IMG/VR virus record: IMGVR_UViG_3300045988_141143
Strand: one strand, 5' to 3'
From: a virus
DNA: 64,000 nt
The first letter of the stretch is position 1. Each line of letters starts with the position of its first letter. The translations under genes were made by a program, and so were the position numbers. Positions 2,488 to 53,333 of the stretch are shown piece after piece. A model generated the notes under the pieces. That model did not search any database and had not been told where the DNA came from. It was given only the letters and a program-made list of their open reading frames with translations.

Positions 2488-2557
2488 GAAAATCCCACGG
2501 CAAGTCTTTTTGTGCATGCCGTGGGAAATGTTAAGGCTTTTGTGTGCAAGCCAGCCT

Positions 2558-3001
2558 TTAAGACTCCAGCTCGCCGCCAGGTTTCTGACCGCCGCCTTCA
2601 GTGGTGGAGCCGCCGGGCTTCACGCCACCCGTGAGGTCGTTGCCGGCAAGGATGACCTTGAGGTCATCGGTGACGAGGGAGCGCATGTAGCTGTAGGGGT
2701 TGCCGATTTTGTGCTGCGCCTTGTAGGCCTTCATCACGGCGAGGTAAGCCTCCGTGCCCTTGGCCGACGTAGCCGACGGGCGGTTCTGCTTCCACCAAGA
2801 GGAGGCGAACTGCGATTTCTTCGTAAACGAAGATTTCACCGTCTGCTGTTTCTCACTGTTCGGCTGCACGCATCCGTGATAGCCAGCCGAATACATCTTA
2901 CCCGTGCGTTTGTTGACACCAATATAAGTAGTGTCCTTTTTGCACAGTTTGCCACTAATGGAACTAACCAAGTGGCTTGGAACAATCTTTGCCATACGCA
3001 A
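2558..3001 (-). CDS. Hypothetical protein with a Gly-rich C-terminal tail shared with the HU-like protein at 24288..24839
   Basis: C-terminus 'GGSTTEGGGQKPGGELES' versus 'GGGEQKPGGNPPEIES' of ORF 24288..24839. The overlapping plus-strand ORF 2399..3004 has antisense-like composition. Confidence 0.4.
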   Translation of the reverse strand: MRMAKIVPSHLVSSISGKLCKKDTTYIGVNKRTGKMYSAGYHGCVQPNSEKQQTVKSSFTKKSQFASSWWKQNRPSATSAKGTEAYLAVMKAYKAQHKIGNPYSYMRSLVTDDLKVILAGNDLTGGVKPGGSTTEGGGQKPGGELES

Positions 3002-3173
3002 TAAATTTTTCCGTGAAACATTGTCCCTAAAAAGGGGCGTTAATACACTCAGAGCAAGTCTACTGAAAGTCTACTGAAAGTTCACTGACGTTGCTCATAG
3101 TGTAAAGGTACGAAAAACGTGCGTGAAACATCGGACATAAAAAATAATTACTAACTAAAATAACAGATTTATT

Positions 3174-3758
3174 ATGAAGAAAATTTTCAGTTTTTTGCTC
3201 ATGTTAGCCATGATGCTTGCCATGGGCGCGAGTGTAGCGAGCTGTAGCAGTAGCAGTGACGATGAAGGTGGAGAAAAAAATCCTCCAGAAGAAGAGTATG
3301 TCGCAAAAGAAAGCAAGTTTTGCGATGCCTTGAGAAAATTCAAGGTATCAGGGTTTGACTACCATCAATACCAATATGTCAGTAAATTCTCGCTGCATAG
3401 CGAGGCTCGCAGTGGAATAGATGCCACCGACCGATGGGAGATTGGAATGTATATAGCAAACGACCCAGGTCTGGATAAGTGGGACGGCACATACCAGTTA
3501 GACCAACTTTGGGGTACGCTCTACGGCTTTGAAAATGGGTACGAGGTGACAAAGGCATATTTAGGTACGGAAGATACTCTCCCAGTGAAAGGAGCATGGA
3601 TAAAATTCACCTACTTGCACAAAAACGACAAATACGGCAACAAGATATACACCATAGAGCTGCATATCGACGAAATGAAGGAGAAAAACGGCGACTACGC
3701 ACGCGACATCAACATCACATATACTGGTTCGATTAGTGGCGGCATGATAGAATATTAA
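3174..3758 (+). CDS. Lipoprotein (signal peptide + lipobox)
   Basis: N-terminus 'MKKIFSFLLMLAMMLAMGASVASC' followed by a Ser/Asp/Glu-rich linker. Confidence 0.55.
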   Translation: MKKIFSFLLMLAMMLAMGASVASCSSSSDDEGGEKNPPEEEYVAKESKFCDALRKFKVSGFDYHQYQYVSKFSLHSEARSGIDATDRWEIGMYIANDPGLDKWDGTYQLDQLWGTLYGFENGYEVTKAYLGTEDTLPVKGAWIKFTYLHKNDKYGNKIYTIELHIDEMKEKNGDYARDINITYTGSISGGMIEY

Positions 3759-3994
3759 AGATATATGGGTGAAAGTTTGCATGTTTCGCAAACTTTGCTT
3801 ACCTTTGCAGTGCTATAATGTGACTCGAAGTTTCAAATAGAGAGTCATAATCTAAAATTAAAAGTATGGATCCCTGCTATTCGTGAGAATGGCAGGGATT
3901 GTTATATGTTTTTTCTTGAAACGACCAAATTTTTTCGTTTCCAATTATTTCCTAAGAAATAAAAGGAAATAAATGGAAACGAGTTCTGCCCCAA

Positions 3995-4276
3995 TCAACA
4001 GAGCACGACAATATGATTCATCTTCAAGATATAAGCAAAGATGAAATAGTTGATGATGCTTCCCAGGATGATGACGAGGGTGTATCGCACAATATCCTCC
4101 CACTCGAACTTTGCCAAATGATAGTGTTTGTATTGATATACCTCTCTACATATCATTACAGGCAAAGCAAGCGGACCTACAAATATACTGACAAACAGCC
4201 AACAGGCGAGACCGATGAGGTCGCGCTTGTTGAGGGTGATGAGGTTTCGGAGAAATGTCTTCATACGCAGAGCCAA
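3995..4276 (-). CDS. Small membrane protein
   Basis: Two hydrophobic helices. Overlaps the end of the upstream membrane-protein ORF and may be one gene split by a frame change. Confidence 0.3.
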   Translation of the reverse strand: MALRMKTFLRNLITLNKRDLIGLACWLFVSIFVGPLALPVMICREVYQYKHYHLAKFEWEDIVRYTLVIILGSIINYFIFAYILKMNHIVVLC

Positions 4277-4788
4277 TAGGTGAAATATACGTCAATGAAG
4301 CCCGCCATCTCTGCCCAATACCAGGGTTTGTAGAATGATGCCCTGCGGTCGAAGATGTAGAGGCAGAGAAGGTACTCTGCCAGTACGATGAGTGTCATCA
4401 TCCAGCATACGGACAGACTCCAACCTACACATCCTATGGCGGCTACGATGGCTCCTCCCTTATGGACAGGGTAGGCGTCGGCATCGAGATAGTTGGGTGC
4501 CGCACCGACAAAGAGCAGTCCTGCGCAACCTATGAAGGCGAGGCACTGAATGCCCTTGCCCGTGTCGAGCATACATATCATCATGGCGATGGCTGTGAAG
4601 AACATGATAAAGGTGAAGAGAAGTCCATAGTTGTGCTTCGTCTTGTTGCCTATCACCTCGCTGCCCGTGCAGTTTTGCAACTGATAGTAAATGTCGCTTA
4701 TCATGTCGGGTGCTCCGAAGCGCATAAACGACAGAAGAAGGAATCCTCCAAGCAGGAGGAATGAGATAATACTTAATATACACATCAT
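4261..4788 (-). CDS. Multi-pass membrane protein
   Basis: Four to five hydrophobic segments. No recognisable catalytic motif. Confidence 0.45.
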   Translation of the reverse strand: MMCILSIISFLLLGGFLLLSFMRFGAPDMISDIYYQLQNCTGSEVIGNKTKHNYGLLFTFIMFFTAIAMMICMLDTGKGIQCLAFIGCAGLLFVGAAPNYLDADAYPVHKGGAIVAAIGCVGWSLSVCWMMTLIVLAEYLLCLYIFDRRASFYKPWYWAEMAGFIDVYFTYWLCV

Positions 4789-4880
4789 AATCTTTTTATA
4801 TTAATGGGTTTTGGGAATACTGACCATTTTCGTGAGGTCACGAATATGGTTATCATTTTCCCGGCATCAGGAAAATGATA

Positions 4881-5399
4881 TTATACACTCATCTCAAGCA
4901 TCTTCGGGTAGCCTGCCTTGTAGTCGTAGGCTTCCACCTCCTCGATGGTCGTCAGCTGACTGACTGCTTGCTTATGGCTCGCCGTAACGTTAAAACACTC
5001 GTAAGCATAGTTTTCGATGCTTCGCATGAGTACTTCGGCTTGCGCACATGGCATAGTAAAAGATACACCTTTTAGCCATATAGCGATATTTTCCTCGCCA
5101 AGCGCAAACTTGTCAGCAATATTCTGTCGTAAGTCCATGCGCTTTTCGACGTTAGGAGAATTAGTGTCATCCTTGTTCCATGAAATAAGCATACCGTTTA
5201 AAATAAAGCCGTTTACCTTGTCTGAGGTGTCGTAGGCTGTTATCTCTTCCTCCTTCTTTGAGATGGCATAAGCCAATTCTGCCGCCTTTACTCTTTCATC
5301 GAATTTAGCGTAAGCAGCCTTCACCTCGTCCTCATCGAATAGCGATGTCGGGATGCTACATTCATAACACCGATAAGCTCCTATCTCGCTATCCAACAC
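4881..5399 (-). CDS. Tail-fibre assembly/chaperone-like protein (paralog A)
   Basis: C-terminal ~60 aa ('ENYAYECFNVTASHKQAVSQLTTIEEVEAYDYKAGYPKML') is homologous to the C-terminus of ORF 5974..6519. Lies downstream of the tail-fibre gene. Confidence 0.4.
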   Translation of the reverse strand: MLDSEIGAYRCYECSIPTSLFDEDEVKAAYAKFDERVKAAELAYAISKKEEEITAYDTSDKVNGFILNGMLISWNKDDTNSPNVEKRMDLRQNIADKFALGEENIAIWLKGVSFTMPCAQAEVLMRSIENYAYECFNVTASHKQAVSQLTTIEEVEAYDYKAGYPKMLEMSV

Positions 5400-5559
5400 C
5401 TCGCCAAGATGGTAGATGGTGATTGTTTCACTCTTGTCTGAACTACCGATTTCATATTTTTTTTAAAACTGGTCAGCAGGAATAATCGTACTGACAAACG
5501 AAATTGTTTTTTTCATAATTTTACCTTTCTTTTAAAGTTACTTTTTATTCTACTCTCTC

Positions 5560-5961
5560 TCAAAGAGGCAAATAGGTCAGCAAGCGTAGACAGGCAGAAA
5601 ACGAGTAGGCGACGGGCTTTCTGTTGGTGCCAATCTGATACGCGCAGTAAACAACAAACGTGGCACTACCCTGCGTTGAAGTCCATCTAATGGTTTTCTT
5701 AACGAAAGTTTCATAGGCTGTGGCAGTGCTTGCATCAAACAATTCCGTCAGAATTTCCTTGATAGTCTCAAGGTTAGCTACATGTACTAATTCCTGTCCT
5801 ATCGACATAATGAAACCACGCTGTTCTTCACCACCTAACGTAAGAATTGTGTTATATGCGTAGTCAAAGGCTGGCAAGGGGAAAGCCTGCGCTTGTCCCT
5901 CCACCATCTTCATCACTGGTATTCGCAGCGTGAAGTCGTTACCTTTAACGATTTTCTTCAT
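5560..5961 (-). CDS. Hypothetical protein
   Basis: Intact ORF between the two chaperone-like paralogs. Coding-like composition. Confidence 0.4.
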   Translation of the reverse strand: MKKIVKGNDFTLRIPVMKMVEGQAQAFPLPAFDYAYNTILTLGGEEQRGFIMSIGQELVHVANLETIKEILTELFDASTATAYETFVKKTIRWTSTQGSATFVVYCAYQIGTNRKPVAYSFSACLRLLTYLPL

Positions 5962-13879: not shown

Positions 13880-14128
13880 CTAAGACATTTTCTTCTCTAC
13901 GATAGCTGTCACATCAGACACAAGCTGTAAGTCTTTTGCCTCTTCTGGCGAAATCTTGATATGGAACATGGTTTCGGTCTGAAGAACGAGGTCGAGAAAG
14001 TCAATAGACTCAAGAGCAAGATCATCACGCAGGTTAGCGCTGTCGGTCACTTCTGCTGTCGATGCCCAAGGTGTGCGCAGGCCTTCAACGATATTGAACA
14101 CCCGCTGACGTATATCTTCTTTGTTCAT
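13880..14128 (-). CDS. Acyl carrier protein
   Basis: 82 aa, acidic. 'DDLALESIDFLDLV' matches the phosphopantetheine-attachment region (DSL to ESI). Start overlaps the KAS stop (ATGA). Confidence 0.6.
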   Translation of the reverse strand: MNKEDIRQRVFNIVEGLRTPWASTAEVTDSANLRDDLALESIDFLDLVLQTETMFHIKISPEEAKDLQLVSDVTAIVEKKMS

Positions 14129-15339
14129 GATGGTTGATATTTAGAGATGATGAATGATGAGTTGGTGCCTCCGAAGCCAAAGGCATTGCAGAGGATATGG
14201 TGTGCTGAGTACTCGCGTGACTGCATGACGAGATTGAGTTTGGGAAAAGCATTCTCGGCTGTGGTAGCCGCACCGAAGACAGTGTCTGTGTTGAGCATCA
14301 TGGATGCTTGAACGGCCTGCGATACACCAGCCATCCAGCACTCGTGCCCCGTCATGCCCTTGGTGGCTACGATATAAGGGCTCTCGGGGAATACCTTTCC
14401 GATGGCTTCTGCCTCTGCAGCATCGCCCAGCTCTGTACCTGTGGCATGGGCAAGGAGTACATCTATCATTCCTGCATCGAGTCCTGCCGATTCTATGGCC
14501 TTAATCATTGCCACTTCTTCCTGATAAGCATCCGGGGTACAGATGTTGGTGCCGTTGGTGGAGAAGCCGCAGCCGGAAAGTTCTGCCACGGGCGAGACTT
14601 CATAATCCTCGAAACGCAAGCTGTCGGAAGGCTCAAGAATGACACAGGCTGCACCACCCGAAGGAGCAAGACCATTGCGGCCTTTGCCGAAGGGCTGCAC
14701 CTTGTCGGGCGAGAAAACGCCCATGGCATCAAACGACAGCATGGAGAAGGGACCTGTCTCCTGTGCGCCAACGACAATCACCATGTCGGTTTGGCGCGTA
14801 TCAAGAAGCATCTTGGCAAGACCGATGGCATGACCTCCTCCGGCACAAGCCCCGCTGACGGTAAGCGAAAGTCCTTTCAGTCCGTAGATAGAGGCGAGAC
14901 TCATGCTGACGGTGGAATTGAGTGTACGGAACACTGCGCCTGCCCCTAAACGTCGGGTGTCGCGCTGTGTAATGGCAGTTGTCATTGCCTGATAGTTGTC
15001 TCCAGCCGTAGTGTCGTTGCTGACGATGACCGATACATTGTGAGACTGCAAGAACTCGGGAAGAATATTGGCTTCCATCAGAGCCTCGTTGACGGCAGAT
15101 AAGGAATATAGGGTCGGTTCGGAAAGACATTGCCGTTGAGCCCTGGTGAGTTCGGATAGCTTCCAAGGGTTCGGGTCATTTATCTTTCCGCACAGGTCGG
15201 ACTGATAACCTTTCTCGCTACGTGCGGGGTCGTGGTGAAGACCGCACTCTCCATACGCCAGCTTCTGTGCGACGGAAAAGGTATCGTTGCCAAGACAGGA
15301 AACGATACCTGTGCCTGTGATTAATATTTTTCTATCCAT
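14125..15339 (-). CDS. Beta-ketoacyl-ACP synthase (KAS I/II, FabF/FabB-like)
   Basis: Active-site Cys in 'VSGACAGGGHAIG'. His motifs 'LAHATGTELGD' and 'KGMTGHECWMAG'. C-terminal 'FGFGGTNSSFII'. Confidence 0.75.
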   Translation of the reverse strand: MDRKILITGTGIVSCLGNDTFSVAQKLAYGECGLHHDPARSEKGYQSDLCGKINDPNPWKLSELTRAQRQCLSEPTLYSLSAVNEALMEANILPEFLQSHNVSVIVSNDTTAGDNYQAMTTAITQRDTRRLGAGAVFRTLNSTVSMSLASIYGLKGLSLTVSGACAGGGHAIGLAKMLLDTRQTDMVIVVGAQETGPFSMLSFDAMGVFSPDKVQPFGKGRNGLAPSGGAACVILEPSDSLRFEDYEVSPVAELSGCGFSTNGTNICTPDAYQEEVAMIKAIESAGLDAGMIDVLLAHATGTELGDAAEAEAIGKVFPESPYIVATKGMTGHECWMAGVSQAVQASMMLNTDTVFGAATTAENAFPKLNLVMQSREYSAHHILCNAFGFGGTNSSFIISKYQPS

Positions 15340-23326: not shown

Positions 23327-24145
23327 TTATCGTTTGATATTCCACATGTGCTCTGCCGGACCAACGAGCACGTCGATGTTTGCGCCCTGCTTCAGGGCCA
23401 CCGTCTCCACCCATTTAAGTTGAATAAACTGCTGTGGGTTAAGATTCATCTCGTTCATATACGCCTTGTCTGCCACAGCCTTTTGGCGTTCAGCCTTCTC
23501 GCGTGCCAACTGCACCTCATATTCACGTTCCTGCGTCTGCTTGGCCTGTACCATCTTTGCCGTGCGGTTCATTTCGGCAAGCTGTTCCTTGTTTGGGGTT
23601 GCCTTGCCGATGATAACGTCCTTGATGATGACGGGCATCGGCTTGTGCTTTGAGAGGGCAGCCACGTAATCCTGCATCTGCTTCAGAATCTTCTTGTCGA
23701 TGGTGCTCAATACCTGTCGGTTAGACATCAAATCGAATGGACTGTACTGCGAGATATGGTCTCTGATAAGATTGCAGAAATAGTTGTAGAGGTTGGTGTC
23801 AAACCAGTCGCGTCCATAGTTCTGCAACAGTATGGGAGACTTGCCTTGCTCCACCTGAGTGACTATGACAGAATGGAAGTCGAGTGGCGTGTTATCGTCG
23901 GAGAAGATGTCGTCAAGAACAACCTCGTGGCGTACAGGCACAATCTTGAATGTTTCAGAATGAGTACTCAGGGCACACCATGTCAAGCCACTCTGAACTG
24001 GGTCGTTGTCAACACCTCCGTGTCCGAAGAACCATGGTTTCTTTACCAACACGGTTTCCTCGTCAGCATCGGGCGACACAAAACAGCACGAGGATAACAT
24101 CACTACTGCGATAAGCGCAAAAAGAATTGAAAATAATTTTTTCAT
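23327..24145 (-). CDS. SPFH/band-7-like lipoprotein
   Basis: Signal peptide plus lipobox 'MKKLFSILFALIAVVMLSSC' (start chosen at 24145). C-terminal 'QLAREKAERQKAVADKAYMNEMNL' resembles SPFH/prohibitin repeats. Confidence 0.45.
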   Translation of the reverse strand: MKKLFSILFALIAVVMLSSCCFVSPDADEETVLVKKPWFFGHGGVDNDPVQSGLTWCALSTHSETFKIVPVRHEVVLDDIFSDDNTPLDFHSVIVTQVEQGKSPILLQNYGRDWFDTNLYNYFCNLIRDHISQYSPFDLMSNRQVLSTIDKKILKQMQDYVAALSKHKPMPVIIKDVIIGKATPNKEQLAEMNRTAKMVQAKQTQEREYEVQLAREKAERQKAVADKAYMNEMNLNPQQFIQLKWVETVALKQGANIDVLVGPAEHMWNIKR

Positions 24146-24287
24146 AATTGTTTTTTGTTTATATTGATTCATTAAAATCCTTATATATGACAATCGTACA
24201 TTGTCAATAGAGTGTCTGTAGGTATTCCAGTTCTTTCCAATTCTTTCAAAACTGGAAAGAACGGGAATGGCTATACACCCGCTGCCT

Positions 24288-24839
24288 TTACGACTCAATC
24301 TCGGGAGGGTTGCCACCAGGTTTCTGCTCGCCGCCTCCAGTGGTGCCGGAATCGCCCGTGCCGGGAGTTGCTGGAGCATCCGTTGCAGCATCGCCCACTC
24401 GCTTGAACGAGCCGTGCTGTGCGAAGGCGGCGGTGAACTTCTTGGAGAAGTCGATGGCTACGCCTGCGGTGAGGTCCTTTGTGGTGAGGTCGGCGGCGGT
24501 AATCTCTCGGTTCACGTCAACGTCCTCGCCTGCTGCCTTACGTGCTTCGAGCTTCGCCTTGAGCTGGCTCTGAGTGAGCGAACCGCTGACGGTAGGACGT
24601 ACCGTCATGCCCTCGGCAGACACCTGTACCTTGGTGCCCAGTGCCAACAGAAGCGGCAGCTTTTTCTCCAACTGCGTCATCACGGCCATTACGTCCGCTG
24701 CGCCTACTGTAGAGTCCTGCGCCATGTAGTCGCAAAATTCAGGGAATGACATCTGCTGCAAGTCAACGATCTGTGCGCTTGCAACCTTTTCTTTCGTGAA
24801 ATTATTCACACGAACTGCAATTCTTGTTTTGATTGCCAT
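24288..24839 (-). CDS. HU-family (Bacteroidales HU-like) DNA-binding protein
   Basis: 'MAIKTRIAVRVNNFT...VDLQQMSFPEFCDYMAQDSTVGAADVMAVMTQLEKKL' plus Gly-rich tail 'GGGEQKPGG'. Confidence 0.55.
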   Translation of the reverse strand: MAIKTRIAVRVNNFTKEKVASAQIVDLQQMSFPEFCDYMAQDSTVGAADVMAVMTQLEKKLPLLLALGTKVQVSAEGMTVRPTVSGSLTQSQLKAKLEARKAAGEDVDVNREITAADLTTKDLTAGVAIDFSKKFTAAFAQHGSFKRVGDAATDAPATPGTGDSGTTGGGEQKPGGNPPEIES

Positions 24840-24967: not shown

Positions 24968-25045
24968 ATTGCTTTTTTCGACTACAAATGTAGGGAGAAA
25001 ATTTTGAGCGGTGCGGACATAAATTCAGAACAGCGTGAGCTGTGC
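24968..25045. repeat. Copy B of the ~75-nt duplicated element (overlaps the MTase 3' end)
   Basis: See copy A. This copy contains the real stop region of MTase 25025..25795. Confidence 0.55.
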
Positions 25046-25795
25046 TTGCTCCAACTTGATGCGCTTGCAAGCCTTGTCGTAATACTCCTTGTTGAGCTCA
25101 AAGCCGATGAAGTTGCGCTTCTCTTTTATACAAGCAATGGCGGTGGTGCCGCTGCCCATGCAGTTGTCTAATATGGTGTCGCCCTCGTTGGAGTAAGTAC
25201 GGATGAGGTACTGGATGAGAGCGACAGGCTTTTGAGTGGGGTGGAAGCTGTTGTGAATATCCCTCTGAAATAAGACAATATCGGTTGGATATTTTTCGTC
25301 GGTTATCATATCCTTCACTTTGCCATAATTTCCGTAACATCTGTTGGTTTGCTCTTTCTCTTGCTTTCCTCTGCTGTGATTGCGTTCATGTGGAAGACAT
25401 TTGCGCATTTGTGGATGATAGGTTGGCTGTCCGTCGTAGAAAACGGAAATCATCTCCGTTTGCTTTAGAGGCATCTTCTTTGTGTTCAAAAAGCCAGTTG
25501 TACGGCATTTATCCCACGTGATATTATAGCGCCACATCTTTTCATTGCTCATCATCAGTTTTGCCGTGAACATACCCTGTCCGAACAATATTATAGCCGC
25601 ATTGGGCTTACTGATACGAAGATATTGCTTCCATAAAGAATCAAGTGGAATAATACTATCCCATCCTCCTCCTTCGCTCTGCTTATTGAGGACACCATAC
25701 GGCAAATCGCACACAATGCAATCCACGCTTCCGTCTGGAATCCTTTTCATTCCTTCGAGGCAGTCTTCATTATATATTTTGTTCAGTTCTATCAT
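25025..25795 (-). CDS. DNA methyltransferase, beta-class N6-adenine/N4-cytosine type
   Basis: Motif IV 'CDLPYG' is N-terminal to the AdoMet motif 'DNCMGSGTTAIAC'. 'HPTQKPVAL' block present. Confidence 0.7.
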   Translation of the reverse strand: MIELNKIYNEDCLEGMKRIPDGSVDCIVCDLPYGVLNKQSEGGGWDSIIPLDSLWKQYLRISKPNAAIILFGQGMFTAKLMMSNEKMWRYNITWDKCRTTGFLNTKKMPLKQTEMISVFYDGQPTYHPQMRKCLPHERNHSRGKQEKEQTNRCYGNYGKVKDMITDEKYPTDIVLFQRDIHNSFHPTQKPVALIQYLIRTYSNEGDTILDNCMGSGTTAIACIKEKRNFIGFELNKEYYDKACKRIKLEQAQLTLF

Positions 25796-40194: not shown

Positions 40195-41280
40195 TTAGCC
40201 ATAGATTTCCTGCATATCCTCCCTCGAAAGTGTTACCTTGGCTCTTTTGCAAAACATGAAAAAAGTATTTGCTCTTACTCTTTCGTATTTTCCGAATGAC
40301 TTCCAAGGAGCCACAAAGTCTGATTCACGGTGTCCGTGGTTGGCATCAAAGGGACGGAAACGAGAAACTCGCTTCCACATATCATAGCCTTCATTCGGAT
40401 CGATACTGTATAAAGACATTCCGCATTTAACCCAGTCATCATAGTTTTCCATAATGTCAACAGCATTCTGCTCTACCTTACGTACAAGGACACGCGCTTT
40501 GCGCAAGATGATGTCGGGTGTATCATTTTCCCAATCACCAGTATAACCCGACCTCTGACCTGACGACGTATTTTCGTAATGCGTAGCAACTTTAGTTACA
40601 GGAATTAGCGATGGCAACACAGCCATATCTTCCAGTCCCTTATACGGCACCACATTTTCATTGATATATATATGTTCGGGATCGTCCCAGGAGGCGAAGC
40701 GCACACGACCGATGTTGCTGCAAGCCTTGTCGAGCATGATGCCGATAGCGGCATATTCTTTGAGCAGAGCTTTGAACTGGTCTTTGTGTCTTTCGGGATA
40801 GGCCAGACGAACCAGACCGAAATAACCAGTACCAGAGCAAGACCGCATCATTAATCCTATCTCAGGACGAAAACGGGCAAGCTTAAATATACTTTCAAAA
40901 TCAGTTATCTGAAGATTGTCCTGCAGATCAATGTCGATGGCGAGCCAGCCCGTGTGCTGTTTCAGGTGGCTCTCTCGTCGGCTCACCATGACACGCTGCC
41001 CTGGATGCGTCAGACTGTCATCTTCATAGAGAGCGAACAAGCCGCTAAGAGTGGCACCAGGTAACATCTTCTTGGTATTGATGTACTCAGGCATTTTCTT
41101 TGCCTTGCTGCCAAATTCCTGACGCATAGCACGAAGACGCTGCACATACGGCTTCCATCTATCCGTAAGACAGAACTCGCGGATGGTCATCTGCTGAATG
41201 CACTCACCCGTCTCGCGGTCTACGAAACGGCCATAAGCATCTTGGGCAGACTCATAAATAGAGCAAACTTCGTCAAACAT
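40195..41280 (-). CDS. Prim-Pol (AEP-superfamily) primase-like replication protein with PriCT-like C-terminus
   Basis: AEP motif I 'LAIDIDL', motif II-like 'SCSGTGYFGLV', 'RVRFAS'. C-terminal 'YDDWVKCGMSLYS'. Confidence 0.5.
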   Translation of the reverse strand: MFDEVCSIYESAQDAYGRFVDRETGECIQQMTIREFCLTDRWKPYVQRLRAMRQEFGSKAKKMPEYINTKKMLPGATLSGLFALYEDDSLTHPGQRVMVSRRESHLKQHTGWLAIDIDLQDNLQITDFESIFKLARFRPEIGLMMRSCSGTGYFGLVRLAYPERHKDQFKALLKEYAAIGIMLDKACSNIGRVRFASWDDPEHIYINENVVPYKGLEDMAVLPSLIPVTKVATHYENTSSGQRSGYTGDWENDTPDIILRKARVLVRKVEQNAVDIMENYDDWVKCGMSLYSIDPNEGYDMWKRVSRFRPFDANHGHRESDFVAPWKSFGKYERVRANTFFMFCKRAKVTLSREDMQEIYG

Positions 41281-42199
41281 ATCTTAGTTATTATACTTAA
41301 TACTTTCACTGCAAAATTAAGAAATAAAACCTAAATAACAAAATATCTGGGGTATTTTCTTGTGTATTTAAGATATATTAAAAGAAATTTAATCGAAATA
41401 TCCCAGTTGTTTCACGTAATGATAGGTATTTTTGAGTGATGAGAAGGAGCATAAAATAAAATGAGACCAAAAAGAAGACTCTGGTCTCATTTCTGTATCA
41501 AAAAGTCCCATTTTTCAAAAATGAACCAAAAAGCAAAAGTCCACTCATCCTATTTTTCTCCTTTTTAGTCCCATGATTGTCTCACGATTATCACCCTGTT
41601 GCCCACTTATTTCTTGCTGTTACTTGCTTACTAATTAGCTTTTTATATTATTTTGGTCTCAAAATGATTATTTTTTTTATAAACTAATATGCGCATAAGA
41701 AATAAAATATTTATCTAAAAGATATAAAATACAGCAAAATTGGCTCAAATCCATCTTATACTTTGCTCCATTTCAATCTTGTAAGTAACTTATTGTCTGA
41801 TGTTTACGGCAAAGCCGTTAATGCTACTAACTTCTAAATTGAGGTTAGGGGCTTTTGATTTTAGGAGAATAAAAAAATTACCCAAAATTCTGATATAGTA
41901 TGCTTAGGATTCATGAAAAATGCGACCAAAACCCTGAAATGAGACCAAAAATGCGAATAAAGTCCCAATAAATGAGACTGTTACACCACTACTCTACCCT
42001 GTCACATTCATATTTGCGAAATGCGACCAGATTATTCGGATTCCATATTGACTATCGTTTTATAGCCGTTCACACCTCACAGCGAAAGAGAAAAACACTG
42101 CGTTTCACAACGAAAAAAGACCACCACGTTTCACAACGGAGCGGTCTCATCAGAAAATACTAACTAATAAATAAGATAAAGAAAATAAAATTCGTAAAC
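41281..42199. repeat. 0.9-kb AT-rich non-coding region with iteron-like repeats (candidate replication origin)
   Basis: At least 8 copies of AATG(A/C)GACCA(A)AA in both orientations (41458, 41482 inverted, 41518, 41651 reverse, 41915, 41937, 41969, 42017). 'AAGTCCCA' occurs 3 times. Inverted repeat AAATGAGACCA-N13-TGGTCTCATTT at 41458-41492. Confidence 0.45.
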
Positions 42200-45100
42200 T
42201 TAGCCCTTGCCTTTCATAAACTGGTTGGCTTTTGTCATGCTGTCATAAAGATTACCACGGCCATACATGTCTATCTTTGCGTAGATAGGTTCATTCAGTC
42301 GGTCGAGGAGGGTCTTGACGGCTTGCATGAGAGCGGCTTGGCTGGCTGTGTTGTTAGCGATTACATTGTTGGCCGCTGGTGCGCCCAACAGAAGATTACC
42401 ATTTTCTGCTGTAAAGCCCGCTGCTGCGTCCCCCATTGCGCTCGCAAGCTCGCCGACATTACCATTGTCAAATGCGCGTCTTGCTGCACGTCTGCCTGAA
42501 TAGTTGCTGTCGTAGTTGACGAGAGCCTTGAGGAGTGCCGGATTGTTCATCATCATGGCGTGTGTCGTCTCACGACCGATTACTATCTCGGGTCCATTCT
42601 CTGCTACAAGAGAAGGCTGGCCATTGATGGTAGTAGCCCTTGGAGTAGTTATCATTTGCACGCCAGTTTTTTGCCTGCCGTCATCCTCTGTTGCCCAATA
42701 AATATCACCATTGTCGGCTACAAATGGCTTCAGGTCTTGCACGTTACCGCTGTCATACGTAAGCATACCTGAAACGAGCTTCGTGTTTTTAGATACAGAA
42801 GAAGATTTCTTACTGCTGCTGCTGAAAGCCGAATTAAGTGCCCACTGAAGCAAGCCCATCAGAGTAGCCATCACTCCTGCTGCAGCAATAGGACCAGCAA
42901 TAGGACCTAAGAACTCAAAACACTTCGCCATTGCTCCCGCGATAGAGAATGTCACCTCTTGGTCGGTGCGGGCCGCGTCCGAGTTTGCCACATCCTGATT
43001 GTTCTGTTCTTTAGCTGCAAGATTGGTGGTCATAGCCGTCTGGGTCATATCAAGAATGGCATTCTGCGCTATCTCCGTACTCTTACTTTGCTCTTTATTG
43101 CCGGCATCGGTGATGTCAGTTATATTCTTGACACCTTGATGGGTTTCTTTCTCTCTATCCTTAGCTCCCTTTTTAACCTCTTTGCTGAGTTCTTTTTGAT
43201 GCTTCCTTTCTTTCTTGAGCTGCTTGGCTTTTTCCTTGTCGTCTCCAGTTTTCTTTGAAGAACCGCCAAGAGTGAAATTGGTATTCATCAAGTCACCCAC
43301 AAGGCTGCCTCCGATACCGGCTACGGCATCGGACAGAGTAGTACCACCTGTAATAGCACCAGCAACGGCTGTTCCCGCTTGAGAGGCTGTATCAATACCG
43401 TAAGTCTCCTTGTTATAATCATGGATAGTACCGTTTGGATGACGTTTCTTCCATGCAGCAGGAGGCTCAGTATTTGCAAGATTGTTGCCGTTGGCATCAA
43501 TATACTGACCTCCTACGACACGTACCCACATCGGGTTTTCAGCCGTGCCCAGGTTACGCCAATCCATATCAATGGTAGTAGCATTAGCATTAGCATTGGC
43601 TCTCGCTGCATCAATGCCAGGCTGTGCGTTTTTCTTGCCTTGTTTCGCTCCGGCATCATTGATGGCTTTCCACATTTGGGTGTTCACGTCATTTAGCGCC
43701 ATATTAGCCCACGACTCAATCATAGACTTCAGGGCATTCTTGATGCTCTCCTGTGCGCTTGATACGTCAGACTCCATCATGGCGAAAGCCTTGCCTACCT
43801 CTGCACCGAAGGTTTCAATAGGCTGTACGAGCTGCTGCATCTGCGAAAGGCGGTTCTTCATCGCCGTCGCCATTTGGTTGGCATAAGCAAGTTCGGCCTC
43901 CTGGCGAGCCTTATCCGCCTCGTCTACCAACTGCTTGTTACGAGAGTTCTTCAGACAGAAGGCATAGTAATCTTCTGCCAGCTGCATCTTCAGCTTCAGT
44001 AGTTCTACCTCTGGGTCAGCGGTAAGGTCGGCAAGACCGAGGTTGGAAAGAAGGTTGGTCCGCTTGCCGAAGAGAGAACTTTCCTGCTGCATCTTGCGCA
44101 GCTTTGCCTGCTGATCGAGATTGCGTTTGTTGTTTTTCCAAAGAAAATCAGAAATCTTCTTGGCTTCATCGTATTCTTTTTTCTGTGCAGCTGTATATTC
44201 ATCAACATATTGGATAAGCTTGTGATAGAATAGCTTTACATTCTGCTCAGTCTCGCCCATCAACGCAAGAAAGACAGAAGGCATCTGCATATAGTCTTTT
44301 CCAAATAAGAACTGAAGCAGCTTCTGCTTCTCCCCGTTTGTCTCAAAAAGTGCCGCCATTTGTGTGCGAGCCTTTTCCAAAACTTTTATAACATCAGCCC
44401 TATCTTTATTTAGCGTTTCAAGCGAAACGTCTGCAAAACGAGAATTTATTAATCCCAAGAAAGAATTTTGTTGAACTATGCCTGTGTAATCATGTTCAAG
44501 TAGCTCCTTCCGACGTTGCTCTATGCGTTTTTGAATCACATTGCTTGAATCGTTCTCTTTTGATGAAGCATTCAGCCACATTCGGTCAAGATAAGCACGG
44601 TCGCGTTCATCTGATTTATATCCGACAACTTGCCCTTTCTTAATTTTAGGCATTTGCTTTAATAAATCAGAACGAAGTTGTGCTACATTAGTATTCAATA
44701 TGGCATCCTCAAGCATACGAGACTGAGATTGTCCAAACTCATCGTCTTTTTCCTTGCGATATTTGTCTATTGATTTTTTAAATTTATCCCAAGTTTTATT
44801 TCCAAAGACAATAGACTGCTGCGCAGCTGCAAGGGCAGCATCCATTTGTATTTGAATGTCATTAACTGCCTGTTCTTGTAATTCTTTCTCTACACCCTTC
44901 TTTGAAAGATCCTCAACAGTAGCTGTCATTTGGCGCTTATAGAAATTCTTTATCTTCGTAATAAACTCAGATATGTTGTTGCGAGCATCATCTTCAGGAG
45001 TAGTTGTGTTACCTCCACCACCGTTGCCGCCATAAACTTTTTGACCTACAGCCATTCCATCTCCTACATCAAGTTTAGCCCCAAACTTTTTCCGTAAGGC

Positions 45101-48100
45101 TTCTTCTTGTGCGTTTATTTCATCCAGTCTTGACTGAGCCTTATCTCGCTCGCGTTTCGCAGCCGCACGTTGTCCTGCCTGTCCGATTGCACCCTGTGCC
45201 TGCCCTGGCATCATAGCACCACCAGAGGTCTGAATATATCTTCCATTAGGAGCGTTCACGTGTGTATTTGCATACGCATCTTCTTTTTTCTGCAAATCAA
45301 GAATAGCATCCACTTTCTCACGACCCAATTCTGCCAACTTAGAACGAGCGCCCTCAAGTTCGTAGTAATCTTGTAGACGTTGAAAGTTTTTCTCCCATGC
45401 CTTAGTGTTTTCCTTAACAACACCCGTCTCTGTGTTAATTTTAGCGTTGAGGTTAGGAATAGCGCCATTCAATTTATTCATAGCTTCGAGGCGAAGATTC
45501 ATTGACGCAGAAGTATCGTGCATAACATTATGCAGACGCTTCAACGATTCTTGTTCCTCCATAGCCTTACGCTTACCTTCTTCTTGTACTTCGTTAAGCA
45601 CGCGCTGTCCTGCGGATAAACCGTTCAAAGAGGAAGAATATTCGGCAAGTTTTACGACCAATATACCCAATAATCCAATTAATCCTCCCATAATACCCGC
45701 CTGCTTGGCAAACGACAAGCCATTAAATGCAGCTTTAGTTTTGGCAACAACAGCCCCCAGAGACAACATACCTCCCTCTAATCCCTGAACATAAGTAAGC
45801 AGTTTTGCAAAGCCACCCGCTAATCCTGCCATACTAATCATGGTGATCAACGTAGGAAGTATGCTCAGTAGCATCTTTATAGAGGCAAAGAGCAGCGCTA
45901 ACGCTACACGAACCTCTGTCATAAAACTCATACTGGTTGTAAGTTCCTTTACAACTTCAAACCAAGCTTTTGCTATATCACGAATAGGTCCCGAAGCCGC
46001 ACTTGAAGAAACAAACTGTTTTTCAAGAAGGTTGTTAGCCCTCTCCATATACGCGGCTGCAGTTTCCTGCTGCATATTATACTCAACCGTAACAGCAGAA
46101 CCTTCATTAAAAGCTTTATTAGACTCCTTTACCGCTTTAGTAAGCATACCATTCTTGGCAGCCATTGTTACCATAGTTTTTACCAAACGAGCGCCATCTG
46201 AGCCTAAGTCCTTAAATAAGCCATCAAGAGCAAAAAGGTTTTTAGTTTCGCCCATTCTGCGGAAAATGGTTAAGATTGCATCCATACCTCTTCCACTCTC
46301 GATCATCTTCTTCAAAGAACCAGAAGCTATACCGAGTGATTTTTCAATAGGGCTTGTACCTTTACGAAGCTCTACAACCAACTTTCCAAAAGCTGTTGCT
46401 GCAACTTCTGGCTCAAGGGCCATTGAGTCAACAGCCGCACCAAGAGCCAAAATATCTGGGGTTGTTAAAGCCGCCTGTTCGCCCAATGCAAGCATACGAT
46501 TAGAGAAATCCACAATCTTTCCGCTTGTCGCTGTAGATGTAGATGCCAGTCGGAAAATCGCAGAGCCTGTTTTCAGCATAGCCTGCTCCACTCCATATTT
46601 ATCCGCAAGACCCATCACCTCAGTAATCTTAGCAAGAGCCGTCAACGCTTCATCGCCCAAATCCTCTTTCAATGCGACGTTCACCTGGTCTGCGGCACGG
46701 ACGAAGCCAGCTAAATTTTGAGTTGTAACACCAAGTTTAGCTCCCGCATAGGCCAAGTTGTTCAGTTCTTCTATGCTTGTACGGGTATCGATTTTAGCAA
46801 GTTCCTTTGATAAATTTGCTACTTCGTCAGTTGTAGATAAAGCGACCTTACGAATATTAGTAAGCTGTTCGCTATACTTCATATTAAGACGAAACAAATC
46901 CATAAAGTACGTTTTAAGCTGATTGAACATCGCAAACAATCCGACATAAGCCGTGAGGTTCTTCAGTGCTGTCTGCCATGCGCTGCCATGCTTGTTGGCC
47001 GCACCCGTCGCCTCGTCGATGTTCTTCTTCAGCTCCTTCATCGACTTCTGCTTGTCGGCAAACTCCTTACTCTTGGTATTGATTTGGTTCAGTTCCTCTT
47101 CGAGTTGCTTGTAGGCACGGCGCAGTTCGTCGAGGGAGGCCTTACCCTGCTTGCTACGGGCGAGAATGTCGTTAAGGGCACTCTGCGACATACGGGTCCC
47201 CTTGAGGGTCTGTTCGAGCATGGAGTATTGGCGACGGAGGTCGGCCACATACTTGCTGCCAGCAGGGAGTTGCTGAATCTTCTGCTGTATCACTTCCATC
47301 GTGCGCTTGATGTCTTCGCCCGAAGCCTTGTTAGGTTCAGCCAATACCTGCTTCATCTGCTTCCAGCTCATTGATGCTTTCTGAGTCTTACCCGACACAG
47401 CCTCCAGCCGCTTCTCTATCTCCTGGAGCTCGCTGTTGTATTTTGCAATATCAGCCGAATTGCCTGTAGGTGTGTTGTCGCGAGCCTCAGTAAGCGTAGA
47501 CTTGGCTCGGCGCAAATCAGATGCTGAAGCGTTTTGACTGGTTACAGTCTGATGTGCCTCTGCCACGCCCATTTTGCCCTTGCGTCTGTCCTCCTCGGCT
47601 TCAAGTTGCTTCAATGTGGCGAGATTCTGCTGATAGGACGCATCCGATTTTTGCAGCGAACCTACGAGGTCACGCTGTTGTTTGATGGCCTTGTCGAGCC
47701 ATTGATCGGATTGGTTCTTTACATTATTCAAGCCATCGGCTATCTTGACATACTGACCTTCAATAAGGCGCATTTGATCGCCCACTTGCTTCATCTCGCT
47801 TCGTATCTGCTCTGCCTTCTTCAGGTCGGCATCCGAGCCGGTGAGCTTAGCAAGAGCCGACTTGCCCGAACCCATAGCACGACGCAGGTCACGAAGCTTA
47901 GTGTTGGTGAGGTCTTGCACCACCTCGCTCAATCGCTTCGTGTCCTCGATATTGTCACGCTGCACTTGCGACAACGCCTTCAATGTGCTCTCTGCCCTCT
48001 TACACTCAGCAGTGTTAGCCTGTCCTGCGGCAGTCATCTTCTGGATGTCGGCAGTATATTTCTGCACAAGATTGTCAATCTCTTCCAACACCTTCTTGGC

Positions 48101-48151
48101 TGTAGAGGCATTGGCCGTGATTACTACTTTTGCTAATTTTTGTGTTGCCAT
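42200..48151 (-). CDS. Tail tape measure protein (1983 aa)
   Basis: Long coiled coils. Core 'TSIEELNNLAYAGAKLGVTTQNLAGFVRAADQVNVALKEDLGDEALTALAKITEVMGL' resembles the TP901-type TMP domain. Hydrophobic segments and Gly-rich C-terminus. Confidence 0.65.
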   Translation of the reverse strand: MATQKLAKVVITANASTAKKVLEEIDNLVQKYTADIQKMTAAGQANTAECKRAESTLKALSQVQRDNIEDTKRLSEVVQDLTNTKLRDLRRAMGSGKSALAKLTGSDADLKKAEQIRSEMKQVGDQMRLIEGQYVKIADGLNNVKNQSDQWLDKAIKQQRDLVGSLQKSDASYQQNLATLKQLEAEEDRRKGKMGVAEAHQTVTSQNASASDLRRAKSTLTEARDNTPTGNSADIAKYNSELQEIEKRLEAVSGKTQKASMSWKQMKQVLAEPNKASGEDIKRTMEVIQQKIQQLPAGSKYVADLRRQYSMLEQTLKGTRMSQSALNDILARSKQGKASLDELRRAYKQLEEELNQINTKSKEFADKQKSMKELKKNIDEATGAANKHGSAWQTALKNLTAYVGLFAMFNQLKTYFMDLFRLNMKYSEQLTNIRKVALSTTDEVANLSKELAKIDTRTSIEELNNLAYAGAKLGVTTQNLAGFVRAADQVNVALKEDLGDEALTALAKITEVMGLADKYGVEQAMLKTGSAIFRLASTSTATSGKIVDFSNRMLALGEQAALTTPDILALGAAVDSMALEPEVAATAFGKLVVELRKGTSPIEKSLGIASGSLKKMIESGRGMDAILTIFRRMGETKNLFALDGLFKDLGSDGARLVKTMVTMAAKNGMLTKAVKESNKAFNEGSAVTVEYNMQQETAAAYMERANNLLEKQFVSSSAASGPIRDIAKAWFEVVKELTTSMSFMTEVRVALALLFASIKMLLSILPTLITMISMAGLAGGFAKLLTYVQGLEGGMLSLGAVVAKTKAAFNGLSFAKQAGIMGGLIGLLGILVVKLAEYSSSLNGLSAGQRVLNEVQEEGKRKAMEEQESLKRLHNVMHDTSASMNLRLEAMNKLNGAIPNLNAKINTETGVVKENTKAWEKNFQRLQDYYELEGARSKLAELGREKVDAILDLQKKEDAYANTHVNAPNGRYIQTSGGAMMPGQAQGAIGQAGQRAAAKRERDKAQSRLDEINAQEEALRKKFGAKLDVGDGMAVGQKVYGGNGGGGNTTTPEDDARNNISEFITKIKNFYKRQMTATVEDLSKKGVEKELQEQAVNDIQIQMDAALAAAQQSIVFGNKTWDKFKKSIDKYRKEKDDEFGQSQSRMLEDAILNTNVAQLRSDLLKQMPKIKKGQVVGYKSDERDRAYLDRMWLNASSKENDSSNVIQKRIEQRRKELLEHDYTGIVQQNSFLGLINSRFADVSLETLNKDRADVIKVLEKARTQMAALFETNGEKQKLLQFLFGKDYMQMPSVFLALMGETEQNVKLFYHKLIQYVDEYTAAQKKEYDEAKKISDFLWKNNKRNLDQQAKLRKMQQESSLFGKRTNLLSNLGLADLTADPEVELLKLKMQLAEDYYAFCLKNSRNKQLVDEADKARQEAELAYANQMATAMKNRLSQMQQLVQPIETFGAEVGKAFAMMESDVSSAQESIKNALKSMIESWANMALNDVNTQMWKAINDAGAKQGKKNAQPGIDAARANANANATTIDMDWRNLGTAENPMWVRVVGGQYIDANGNNLANTEPPAAWKKRHPNGTIHDYNKETYGIDTASQAGTAVAGAITGGTTLSDAVAGIGGSLVGDLMNTNFTLGGSSKKTGDDKEKAKQLKKERKHQKELSKEVKKGAKDREKETHQGVKNITDITDAGNKEQSKSTEIAQNAILDMTQTAMTTNLAAKEQNNQDVANSDAARTDQEVTFSIAGAMAKCFEFLGPIAGPIAAAGVMATLMGLLQWALNSAFSSSSKKSSSVSKNTKLVSGMLTYDSGNVQDLKPFVADNGDIYWATEDDGRQKTGVQMITTPRATTINGQPSLVAENGPEIVIGRETTHAMMMNNPALLKALVNYDSNYSGRRAARRAFDNGNVGELASAMGDAAAGFTAENGNLLLGAPAANNVIANNTASQAALMQAVKTLLDRLNEPIYAKIDMYGRGNLYDSMTKANQFMKGKG

Positions 48152-51193: not shown

Positions 51194-52044
51194 ATGTTAA
51201 ACGAACAACTGCAGAAAAAGGTAAAACAGTCGATAAAACTCCTGCAGAGTGTGCAGAAGCGATACGACGGCGAGATAGAGATAGCCTACTCGGGCGGTAA
51301 GGACTCCGACGTGATCCTTCAGCTGGCGAAAGAGGCAGGCATCAAGTATCGGGCCATATACAAGAATACGACCATCGACCCGCCAGGCACGTTGGGGCAC
51401 GTCAGAGAAATGGGAGTGGAGATACTGCGGGCCAAGACATCCTTCTTTCATCTCGTGGCACAGAAAGGATTTCCATCTCGCTTTACTCGTTTCTGTTGTG
51501 AAGAACTGAAGGAATACAAGGTGCTCAACAAAAGTATTATCGGCGTGCGCAAGGCTGAGAGCCGGAAACGAAACGAAAGATACAACGAGCCGACAGAGTG
51601 CCGATACTTCGGAAAGAAGAAAGAGGAAAATCACGTAGAACAGATTTATCCTATTCTGGAATGGACCGATGAGGACGTGCGTGACTTCATCATAGACAGA
51701 AAGTTGAAACTCGCACCCATTTATTACAATTCGGGGGGCAAATCGACGTGTCGAAACGTCTTGGCTGTATGTGCTGTCCTCTTGCCTCAAGGCGCAAGCG
51801 CATTATCGAGTTTCAGAAATATCCCAAGATAGCAAAGGCTTATCTCCGTGCGGGGCAACGATTTATGGAAACGCATCCTGACAGCAAGGCGTGCCAGAGG
51901 TACGACAATGTTTACGAATGGTTCGTTCGCGACGTATTTTACAGCTCCAATGCAGATTGGAGCAAGGTAAGCACAGGGCTGTTCGGTAAGCCGGACTTCA
52001 AGAAATTCTTGGAGGACAAGTTCGGTATTGACTTGACATTATAA
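51194..52044 (+). CDS. PAPS-reductase-family (PP-loop) protein split by a 1-nt frameshift in a G6 tract
   Basis: 'IAYSGGKDSDVIL' PP-loop, 'RFCCEELK', 'IIGVRKAESRKRNE'. Conserved C-terminal 'RLGCMCCPL' continues in frame +2 after GGGGGG at 51733-51738. Reported ORFs 51194..51832 and 51748..52044. Confidence 0.55.
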
Positions 52045-52724: not shown

Positions 52725-53333
52725 ATGAATAACAACATAAAAAGAAAGGACTGGGTAGGCGGCTCGGCTGCTGTATTCAAGACGTTGGGCGCGAGCAACC
52801 ATACGAATGCGGATAGACAGCGTGAGGATTACTATGCCACTGAGCCGAAGGCTACGGAATGGCTGTGCAAGCTGGAGAGGTTTGAGGGCAGGATTCTTGA
52901 GCCTTCGTGTGGCGAGGGCCACATGAGTAGAGTATTGGAGGCAGCAGGGTATGAGGTGGTGAGCCGCGATCTTGTGGATAGAGGGTACGGCGAAGTTGCC
53001 GACTTTCTCTCTATTGACAATATGGAGTGGGATGGCAATATCGTGACTAATCCACCCTACAAATACGCACAGGAATTTGTGGAGAAGGCTCTAAGCATCA
53101 TTCCCGAAGGAAAGAAGGTGGCGATGTTTCTAAAGCTGACTTTCCTCGAAGGCAAGGGTCGACGCGCTCTCTTCCGTTCTACTCCCCCCATTCGTGTTTG
53201 GGTAAGTTCATCACGACTGAAATGCGCCATGAATGGCGACTTCGAGGCTTACGGCAGCAGCGCCGCGGCTTACGCATGGTTCGTGTGGGAGAAAGGATAT
53301 AAAGGCGAGACAACTGTAAAATGGTTTAACTGA
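52725..53333 (+). CDS. Small N6-adenine DNA methyltransferase (phage Dam-like)
   Basis: AdoMet motif 'ILEPSCGEGHM' followed by 'IVTNPPYKYAQEF' (NPPY). Confidence 0.6.
   Translation: MNNNIKRKDWVGGSAAVFKTLGASNHTNADRQREDYYATEPKATEWLCKLERFEGRILEPSCGEGHMSRVLEAAGYEVVSRDLVDRGYGEVADFLSIDNMEWDGNIVTNPPYKYAQEFVEKALSIIPEGKKVAMFLKLTFLEGKGRRALFRSTPPIRVWVSSSRLKCAMNGDFEAYGSSAAAYAWFVWEKGYKGETTVKWFN

Follow-up and report, generated by a model that had tools for sequence, protein, structure and literature searches.

Genomic Setting and Relatives

The locus considered here lies in a 64-kb window, by which we mean the whole stretch of viral DNA that was analyzed. Between approximately 4 and 51 kb of this window, every gene is on the minus strand, and along the direction of transcription the tape-measure gene (42200..48151, minus strand; 1983 aa, PF10145 with E = 6.6e-14) is followed by a gap (41281-42199), the Prim-Pol gene (40195..41280, minus strand; 361 aa), the genes for guanylate kinase and ThyX, and the head genes. 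The Prim-Pol protein carries an AEP-type BT4734-like N-terminal domain and a PriCT-2 domain (Pfam matches PF08800, E = 3e-7, and PF08707, E = 7e-6), and its PHROG assignment is DNA primase. The Pfam matches agree with the preliminary description of this DNA, which had placed the gap between a Prim-Pol and a tape-measure gene. Its account of the gap as AT-rich and as the longest non-coding stretch of the window likewise stands: no other ORF-free stretch of the 64 kb reaches its 919 nt, the next-longest measuring 463-539 nt (ORF cut-offs of 65 or 80 aa), and the GC content of 41-42 kb is 0.35 vs. ~0.47. The large terminase gene lies on the other strand at 53.6-55.6 kb, 12 kb from the gap.

The phage is uncultured and comes from the gut, has a genome of ~95 kb, and its host is likely a Prevotella. 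True copies of the core element described below occur in genome bins mostly on contigs assigned to Prevotella (5 of 26 matches in a scan of genome-bin contigs with the core pattern were true elements, the remainder being mostly chance matches). A megablast search of cultured phages returned no match, and the relatives of the Prim-Pol protein in cultured phages (Cellulophaga and Nonlabens phages) are at most 30% identical. The families 'Flandersviridae', 'Quimbyviridae', and 'Gratiaviridae' were considered as a home for the phage and rejected because they carry DnaG/DnaB-type replication modules.

Relatives were collected by searching IMG/VR with Prim-Pol. The search yielded 79 loci (57-100% identity), situated on contigs 50-106 kb in length, and nearly all of these loci have a gap of 750-1000 nt at the same place. 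A scan with the core pattern found at least 119 contigs with a true element, syntenic and present as a single copy per contig. In more than 100 related phage contigs the module always directly follows the tape-measure gene, and its parts come in the order terminator, array I, invariant core with two hairpins, AT-rich stretch, and opposed array II. In every relative, the element is bounded upstream by the tape-measure stop codon. Offsets are given from an anchor, the invariant loop GTAGCAT of the core (window 41827); where tblastn matched the tape-measure protein in the related loci, its C-terminus lies 240-490 nt before this anchor, and Prim-Pol starts 470-630 nt past it in 68 related loci and ~4.1 kb past it in 6. 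The phage family is strongly mosaic.

Repeat Family and Site Arrays

Two repeat motifs had been distinguished in the gap. Both belong to a single family, TG-N-GAC-Y flanked by A/T tracts, which may also be written (A)ATG-N-GAC-Y and includes TGAGACC, TGCGACC, and TGGGACT. The repeats first noticed are real, but the count of at least eight was too high: AATG(A/C)GACCA occurs in 5 exact copies, all in 41460-42029 and none elsewhere in the 64 kb, and the others are degenerate (AATGAACCA at 41520, TTTGAGACCA at 41652-61 on the minus strand, AATGAGACTG at 41970, and GATGAGACCG at 42143-49 on the minus strand). A perfect inverted pair exists as well, with arms at 41459-41469 and 41482-41492; the arms start at 41459 and enclose a spacer of 12 nt, instead of the 13 nt given before. 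The three reported copies of AAGTCCCA reduce to two exact ones (41503 and 41960), since the supposed third reads TAGTCCCA, and two copies, taken by themselves, are at chance level for the window (expectation 1.85).

The family as a whole is far from randomly placed. TGNGACY is found 11 times in the 919-nt gap (12 per kb) vs. 24 times in the other 63 kb (0.38 per kb), a density ~30-fold higher in the gap. The entire window contains 35 occurrences where shuffled sequence gives an expectation of 57.5 +/- 7.2; with 11 of the 35 in the gap, the motif is thus concentrated there and avoided elsewhere, being depleted ~2-fold outside the gap.

The element comprises ~12 sites with a pentanucleotide core over ~560 bp, arranged as two arrays that enclose a central region of ~260 bp. 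Array I (41921..42028, plus strand) has 5-6 sites, namely TGCGACC at 42022-28, TGAGACT at 41973-79, TGAGACC at 41940-46, and TGCGACC at 41921-27, all on the plus strand, together with TGGGACT at 41961-67 and a weak GTGAC at 42001-05 on the minus strand. Array II (41462..41661, minus strand) has 7-8 sites in the orientation opposite to array I: TGAGACC at 41655-61, a weak GTGAGAC at 41577-83, TGGGACT at 41567-73, TGGACT at 41538-43, TGGGACT at 41504-10, and TGAGACC at 41483-89 on the minus strand, and TGAGACC at 41462-68 and a degenerate TGAACCA at 41521-27 on the plus strand. The perfect palindrome 41459-41492 consists of the last two good sites of array II. The two sites of array I closest to the center face outward, as do the center-nearest sites on both sides. 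The polarity of the arrays is opposed, with the center-nearest sites of array I on the plus strand of the window and those of array II on the minus strand; this holds in all four site classes introduced below. Neighboring sites are mostly spaced by 20-21 or 30-33 nt, approximately whole helical turns, with a few spacings of 10-12 nt in array I.

The positions and orientations of the sites are conserved across lineages (>100 phages), while their sequence is lineage-specific, with at least four classes of the 5-nt core: GNGAC (class B), to which the window and at least ~50 other contigs belong, TGGAC (class A), TGCAC, and CCCAC. Array I sites lie at offsets of approximately -187, -177, -129/-118, and -99, of which -187, -177, -118, and -99 are filled in 29-42 of 42 class-B elements. 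Array II sites lie at +167, +234, +255, +285, +318, and +339 in forward and +360 in reverse orientation; these offsets are filled in 23-38 of the 42 class-B elements, and in the other classes they are occupied by TGGAC, TGCAC, or CCCAC. That all copies change together at fixed positions is the pattern expected for the sites of one sequence-specific protein. Absence or lack of conservation of the repeats in close relatives had been named beforehand as a finding that would speak against an origin. What is found is conservation of position combined with lineage-specific sequence, which is the behavior of initiator/iteron pairs.

The Invariant Core and the AT-Rich Stretch

Between the arrays lies a core of ~60 nt that is nearly invariant among relatives (41802..41859, minus strand). 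It is composed of a C/A-rich tract, TCAAAAGCCCCTAACC, and two hairpins: H1 (41817-41831, minus strand; GTTA-GTAGCAT-TAAC), with a 4-bp stem and an invariant loop, and H2 (41806-41818, minus strand; ACGGC-TTT-GCCGT), with a stem of 3-5 bp, which shares 2 nt with H1. In an alignment of 56 distinct sequences, 98% of the cells of the two stems are paired, and 36 cells show double changes vs. 4.5 in shuffles, while slid controls reach at most 52% pairing. Six stem variants occur for each hairpin. Wobble pairs favor the gene-sense strand by 8 vs. 2, which is a weak hint. Stems as short as these imply that the hairpins function as single-stranded DNA or as RNA.

The strong covariation, the strand preference of the wobble pairs, and a near-consensus -7 box that lies ~50 nt upstream in many relatives could mean that the core is the gene of a small non-coding RNA, either a phage sRNA or a primer/activator transcript, with the hairpins as RNA structure. 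We consider this unlikely, as the putative gene has neither a conserved -33 box nor a clear terminator, matches no Rfam family at gathering score, and leaves the site arrays unexplained; RNAalifold on 275 nt predicts a single 5-bp hairpin only. Searches for tRNA, tmRNA, and Rfam families found nothing, and a large structured RNA was rejected on the grounds that only two hairpins of 4-5 bp covary and RNAalifold finds but one 5-bp hairpin. A role of the core as a transcript or as single-stranded hairpins is at the same time compatible with an origin.

On the array II side of the core, a stretch with 82-84% AT (41631..41745) is a candidate DNA-unwinding element; it is AT-rich in all aligned relatives. 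No other 100 bp of the 64 kb are as unstable as 41631-41730, which have a nearest-neighbor dG of -103 kcal/mol (mean -139, sd 9.6 kcal/mol).

Co-variation of the Sites With a Helicase

The closest relative of the window, contig _151591, carries a replication module ~37 kb from the gap (helicase gene at 9.1-12.7 kb, gap at ~48.6-49.5 kb of that contig) that encodes a 1226-aa protein and a DNA polymerase III beta clamp. The 1226-aa protein has the Walker A motif ASGGSGKS, the Walker B motif HWED, and the superfamily 3 (SF3) motif C VITSNS. Pfam gives only a weak match to DUF5906, and a profile search against PDB sequences gave no match. An AlphaFold model of the last 446 residues reached a pLDDT of 85.3 with a 38-sequence alignment (33 from the single sequence) and matches the D5 and SaPI PriRep SF3 helicases, the structure of SaPI5 PriRep being among the two best fold matches; other fold matches are NrS-1, ASFV C962R, papillomavirus E1, and large T. 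Clusters of this helicase contain hundreds to thousands of member sequences, and the phage family is abundant.

Both the helicase gene and the element are present in 57 genomes, which served as the sample for co-variation. Wherever the helicase has 75% identity or more to the window type (40 genomes), the sites are GNGAC without exception, and identity to the window type is 74.5% in CCCAC genomes, 68-73% in TGGAC genomes, and 68% in TGCAC genomes. The difference in overall helicase identity is modest (79% within a class vs. 68-75% between classes). In residues 1061-1170 (~110 aa), lineages cluster by site class even when they do not in the remainder of the protein. For instance, the two TGCAC lineages are 94% identical in residues 1061-1170 vs. 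68% in residues 1-800, a part of the protein in which one of the TGCAC lineages is closest to TGGAC genomes. Likewise, the window type and a class-B sublineage with 76% identity to it (B4) share 83% of residues in 1061-1170 vs. 66% in 801-1060. Class-specific residues form clusters at 1091-1104 and 1131-1165, which in the model correspond to a short helix and a long beta-hairpin, and TGGAC and TGCAC helicases differ by E/S/K vs. Q/R/C at positions 1091/1094/1135. Judged by the order of its secondary-structure elements, as opposed to a domain-level fold match, the C-terminal domain may be a winged helix.

Other genes behave differently from the helicase. The Prim-Pol of the window is closest to that of TGGAC (class-A) genomes (75% identity) and only 64% identical to that of a GNGAC (class-B) locus (L025), and 1 of 361 Prim-Pol columns separates class B from class A, in a gappy stretch. 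Site class is not tracked by guanylate kinase, ThyX, or the tape-measure protein (neighbors within +/-6 kb), by the C5 methylase, or by the neighbors of the helicase gene (131-aa, 202-aa, and clamp ORFs). Judged by these sequence comparisons, site class appears to follow the ~110-aa C-terminal domain of the helicase, not Prim-Pol or any of the eight other genes tested, in about 4-5 independent events (approximately one for class B, two for TGCAC, and one for CCCAC). We infer that this domain binds the arrays.

The preliminary description had assigned the reading of the iterons to Prim-Pol as initiator. This part is given up, as Prim-Pol shows no covariation with site class and is separated from the element by a cassette in nine relatives. 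An origin in the style of pRN1 ORF904 or ColE2 Rep, with Prim-Pol as initiator, was rejected because the specificity of the repeats is not mirrored in the sequence of the primase. Prim-Pol is retained as a conserved neighbor of the element and possibly as a primase that acts there.

The same co-variation bears on two further functions that repeat-rich DNA of this kind could have. One is to mark where the genome is packaged or ends (as pac, cos, or the border of a terminal repeat), in which case the repeats would be sites of the terminase small subunit. The gap is non-coding and rich in repeats, and 6 of the 79 related contigs end inside it where ~1-2 would do so by chance. These ends come from fragments and are scattered (98-949 nt before Prim-Pol); lying at differing positions in a variable AT-rich region, they are taken as assembly breaks and not as termini. 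Since the large terminase gene is distant and on the other strand, and since a packaging function leaves the co-variation with the helicase without a reason, we regard this as very unlikely. The other is a plasmid-like partition centromere of an episomal phage, for which two arrays of short repeats around a conserved central region, as in R1 parC, would be a precedent. It is very unlikely, given that the co-variation is with a helicase and that neither the surroundings of the element nor the annotated portion of the genome revealed a ParA/ParM- or ParB/ParR-like gene.

Flanking Signals and Cassette Genomes

The gap begins and ends with transcription signals. The tape-measure operon ends in an intrinsic terminator (42113..42148, minus strand; GAGACCGCTCCG...CGTGGTGGTC followed by T6), identified by a terminator scan, with a second, weaker terminator at 42091-42112; in the alignment of relatives the pairing of the terminator hairpin is maintained by compensatory changes. 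Primary-sigma promoters of Bacteroidota combine a -33 TTTG with a -7 TAnnTTTG, the two being separated by 19-21 nt. The promoter of Prim-Pol (41312..41342, minus strand; TTTG-N19-TAATTTTG) has this form, TTTG-N19-TAnnTTTG, ends 31 nt before the ATG, and contains the sole TAnnTTTG conserved in all relatives. A search for further Bacteroidota promoters inside the element found just partial -7 boxes, none of them conserved. The terminator and the Prim-Pol promoter are ordinary flanking signals and lie outside the origin.

With a terminator and a promoter as its borders, and with a palindromic pair of sites ~140 nt upstream of the promoter, the gap could be a transcriptional control region between two transcription units, in which the repeats are operators of a phage repressor or activator in charge of the operon of Prim-Pol and nucleotide metabolism; lineage-specific operators likewise co-evolve with their regulators. 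In nine relatives, however, the element and Prim-Pol are separated by a 3.6-kb cassette whose genes are on the opposite strand. In these genomes the full element remains beside the tape-measure stop codon, flanked by two convergent gene ends, while Prim-Pol retains its own region of ~270 nt with a -7 box. Since the element is intact there, it does not serve the downstream gene and is not simply the promoter region of Prim-Pol. The element thus stays at the tape-measure end when the convergent cassette splits off Prim-Pol with its promoter, ~12 sites over 560 bp around an invariant hairpin core are not the layout of an operator, and the site class tracks the helicase domain and no small DNA-binding protein tested, all of which makes regulation by operators quite unlikely. 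In three loci (L021, L022, and L054) the long tape-measure ORF had seemed to be missing, and stop-codon recoding was considered as the cause; it was rejected, the 3.6-kb cassette being inserted instead.

A Candidate Replication Origin

The architecture of the element, its conservation, its co-variation with the helicase, and the fold of the latter are computed results, and together the elements of the gap form a plan like that of the origins of Staphylococcus pathogenicity islands (SaPIs), compared below. The gap is therefore read as the replication origin of the phage, of the type that is read by an SF3 helicase-initiator, a reading to which we assign a probability of roughly 0.68. The four other functions discussed above are less able than an origin to explain the co-variation with the helicase, the cassette genomes, or both. 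The preliminary description had also arrived at a replication origin, and that proposal is supported by the conservation, the candidate unwinding region, and the co-variation with the helicase, with the exception of its mechanism, in which Prim-Pol was the reader.

Cumulative GC skew had been suggested as a check, and it shows no inflection at 41-42 kb; the minimum is at ~48-49 kb, near the switch of gene strand at ~51 kb. Because the direction of transcription dominates the skew here, this is weak evidence against an origin. DnaA boxes, sought by eye, reach 6-of-9 matches at best.

For binding, melting, and priming, we infer the following course. The C-terminal domain of the helicase would bind the sites, and helicase oligomers, assembled in opposite orientation on the two arrays, would melt the AT-rich stretch. 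Once exposed, the single strand could fold into the conserved hairpins, and the first primers may be supplied by the neighboring Prim-Pol or by the N-terminal 800 aa of the helicase protein itself, a part with no assigned function, while the phage-encoded beta clamp would recruit a polymerase. The conserved hairpins may be the place where Prim-Pol primes, much as RepB' does on ssiA/ssiB of RSF1010. The role of the hairpins and that of Prim-Pol are conjecture.

A more specific version of this origin would have two readers, with the helicase reading the arrays and the catalytic half of Prim-Pol reading the central double hairpin. As parts of this joint scheme, the C-terminal domain of the helicase would be swappable, its at least four specificity classes resembling incompatibility groups, and the hairpins, with the loop GTAGCAT and the C-rich tract, would be a single-strand initiation signal. 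We put the two-reader version forward tentatively and regard it as doubtful. If true, it would combine an origin of SaPI/SV40 type with hairpin priming of RSF1010 type and would give an abundant group of uncultured Prevotella phages its first defined origin. The catalytic half of Prim-Pol is described as equally conserved as the central hairpin.

Comparison With Known Origins

Among the closest counterparts of the element is the SaPI origin. SaPI origins contain 6-12 penta- or hexanucleotide iterons, which an AT-rich center divides into two halves of opposite orientation; a self-loading SF3 Rep reads them through its C-terminal winged helix, and a primase gene adjoins the origin (PMC9371898). 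The phage element is similar in the number of its sites, in their nearly even split around an AT-rich center (5-6 + 7-8), in its opposed arrays, in a putative initiator of SF3-helicase type whose C-terminal domain would be the reader, and in the primase gene beside the origin. It differs in that the SaPI origin lies directly downstream of rep, whereas the helicase gene of the phage is ~37 kb away and Prim-Pol is the adjacent gene; in its extent of ~560 bp with an invariant central double hairpin; in the lack of detectable sequence similarity (no PDB sequence match); and in its setting, here a Bacteroidota host and a ~95-kb phage as the replicon. The element would thus work like a SaPI origin, yet it is not classed as a member because adjacency to rep fails. 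A proposed initiator gene at ~37 kb from its sites is unlike SaPIs and most iteron replicons.

In the origins of SV40 and papillomaviruses, pentanucleotide sites of opposed orientation (GAGGC in SV40) stand next to a palindrome and an AT-rich tract and are read by an SF3 double hexamer. Both E1 and large T also appear among the fold matches of the phage helicase. In contrast to the phage element, these origins belong to eukaryotic viruses and measure ~64-100 bp with 4 sites, and their initiators carry the origin-binding domain on the N-terminal side of the helicase, whereas in the phage it is the C-terminal domain that would read the sites.

The oriV of plasmid RSF1010 has iterons, an AT-rich region, and the hairpins ssiA and ssiB as single-strand initiation signals for RepB', an AEP-like primase with a helix-bundle domain (PMC8567376). 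Its combination of an iteron array, an AT-rich region, and conserved hairpins resembles that of the phage and may serve as a model for the proposed step that involves the hairpins and Prim-Pol. Its 20-bp iterons are read by a separate protein, RepC, and its two 40-nt hairpins are on opposite strands; the phage has one pair of 4-5-bp hairpins instead. In more classical iteron origins (lambda ori with O, Rep_3 and RepA_N plasmids, and RepA of the Vibrio PLE), initiator sites likewise lie beside an AT-rich unwinding region, and the pairs of sites and initiators are lineage-specific (PMC7145576). Unlike the phage sites, their iterons are direct repeats of 17-22 bp in one array, and their initiator is a dedicated non-helicase protein whose gene is usually found within or beside the origin.

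Compared with the SaPI/SV40-type plan, what is new in the phage is the addition of an invariant hairpin core, the distance of the putative initiator gene, and the occurrence in an abundant and unstudied family of phages. To our knowledge, no replication origin has yet been defined for phages of gut Bacteroidota. If the origin reading holds, the helicase-initiator style of SaPIs and eukaryotic viruses is also used by large tailed phages, with the initiator gene at a remote position. The core together with the site class offers a marker for sorting mosaic genomes and for predicting the compatibility of phages in co-infection, and a possible use lies in replicons for Prevotella, which is genetically hard to manipulate. 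The analysis further provides a concrete candidate pairing between a ~110-aa helicase domain and a 5-nt site, for which nature supplies specificity variants: the TGGAC and TGCAC sites differ by one base, and the corresponding helicases by about three residues.

Putative replication-associated sequences and genes

Outside the gap at 41281-42199, the ORF-free region between the tape-measure and Prim-Pol genes that holds the candidate replication origin, the repeated site TGNGACY occurs 24 times, compared to approximately 57 copies expected for the whole window. This roughly twofold depletion is consistent with selection against stray sites for the predicted initiator. The palindromic site pair within the gap (41459-41492, minus strand) has a run rich in T directly after it and was scored as a hairpin resembling an intrinsic terminator. 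It could have a second role as a terminator for transcription from either side. The proposed initiator, a 1226-aa SF3 helicase, is encoded on the closest relative of the window, contig IMGVR_UViG_3300045988_151591 (locus L162, 955-4635, equivalent to locus L203, 3001-6678). The helicase family is abundant, with clusters of 633, 2415, and 936 members, yet public sources give it no name. The N-terminal region of the helicase, approximately 800 aa long, contains a CFCPFC zinc motif and has no match among Pfam families or PDB sequences.

Variation and mosaicism around the origin-like element

Nine related loci (L007, L016, L017, L021, L022, L047, L054, L055, and L062) have five to six genes on the opposite strand inserted between the origin-like element and the Prim-Pol gene. 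They form a 3.6-kb cassette, at roughly positions 2300-5800 of each locus, and the cassette gene nearest to Prim-Pol encodes a glycine-rich product of 168-179 aa. Six of the 79 related contigs (L002, L012, L015, L033, L039, and L042) end inside the gap, at differing positions. The likely cause is that the assembly broke off in this variable, AT-rich region. The phage family is extremely mosaic: the Prim-Pol of the window is 100% identical to that of contig _134987 (L001/L097), while its C5 methylase shares 83% identity with _134987 and 99% with _151591 (L004/L080), and no single IMG/VR contig matches the window along its full extent.

Suggested host and accessory genes

True copies of the core element are present in contigs binned to Prevotella genomes (L430, L436, and L447), one of which, at 94.5 kb, has the size of a phage genome, as well as in the bin contigs L433 and L445. 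These occurrences point to Prevotella as the genus of the host, but evidence from binning is weak. Three DNA methyltransferases, of the N6/N4 (25025-25795, minus strand), PHROG-799 (52725-53333, plus strand), and C5 (62104-63348, minus strand) types, are encoded in the window together with a PAPS-reductase-like gene (51194-51832, plus strand) and an SPFH/Band-7 protein (23327-24391, minus strand), which suggests a heavy investment of the phage in DNA modification. An unusual auxiliary metabolic gene, encoding a beta-ketoacyl synthase (14125-15339, minus strand; PF00109 and PF02801), is surrounded by phage structural genes.
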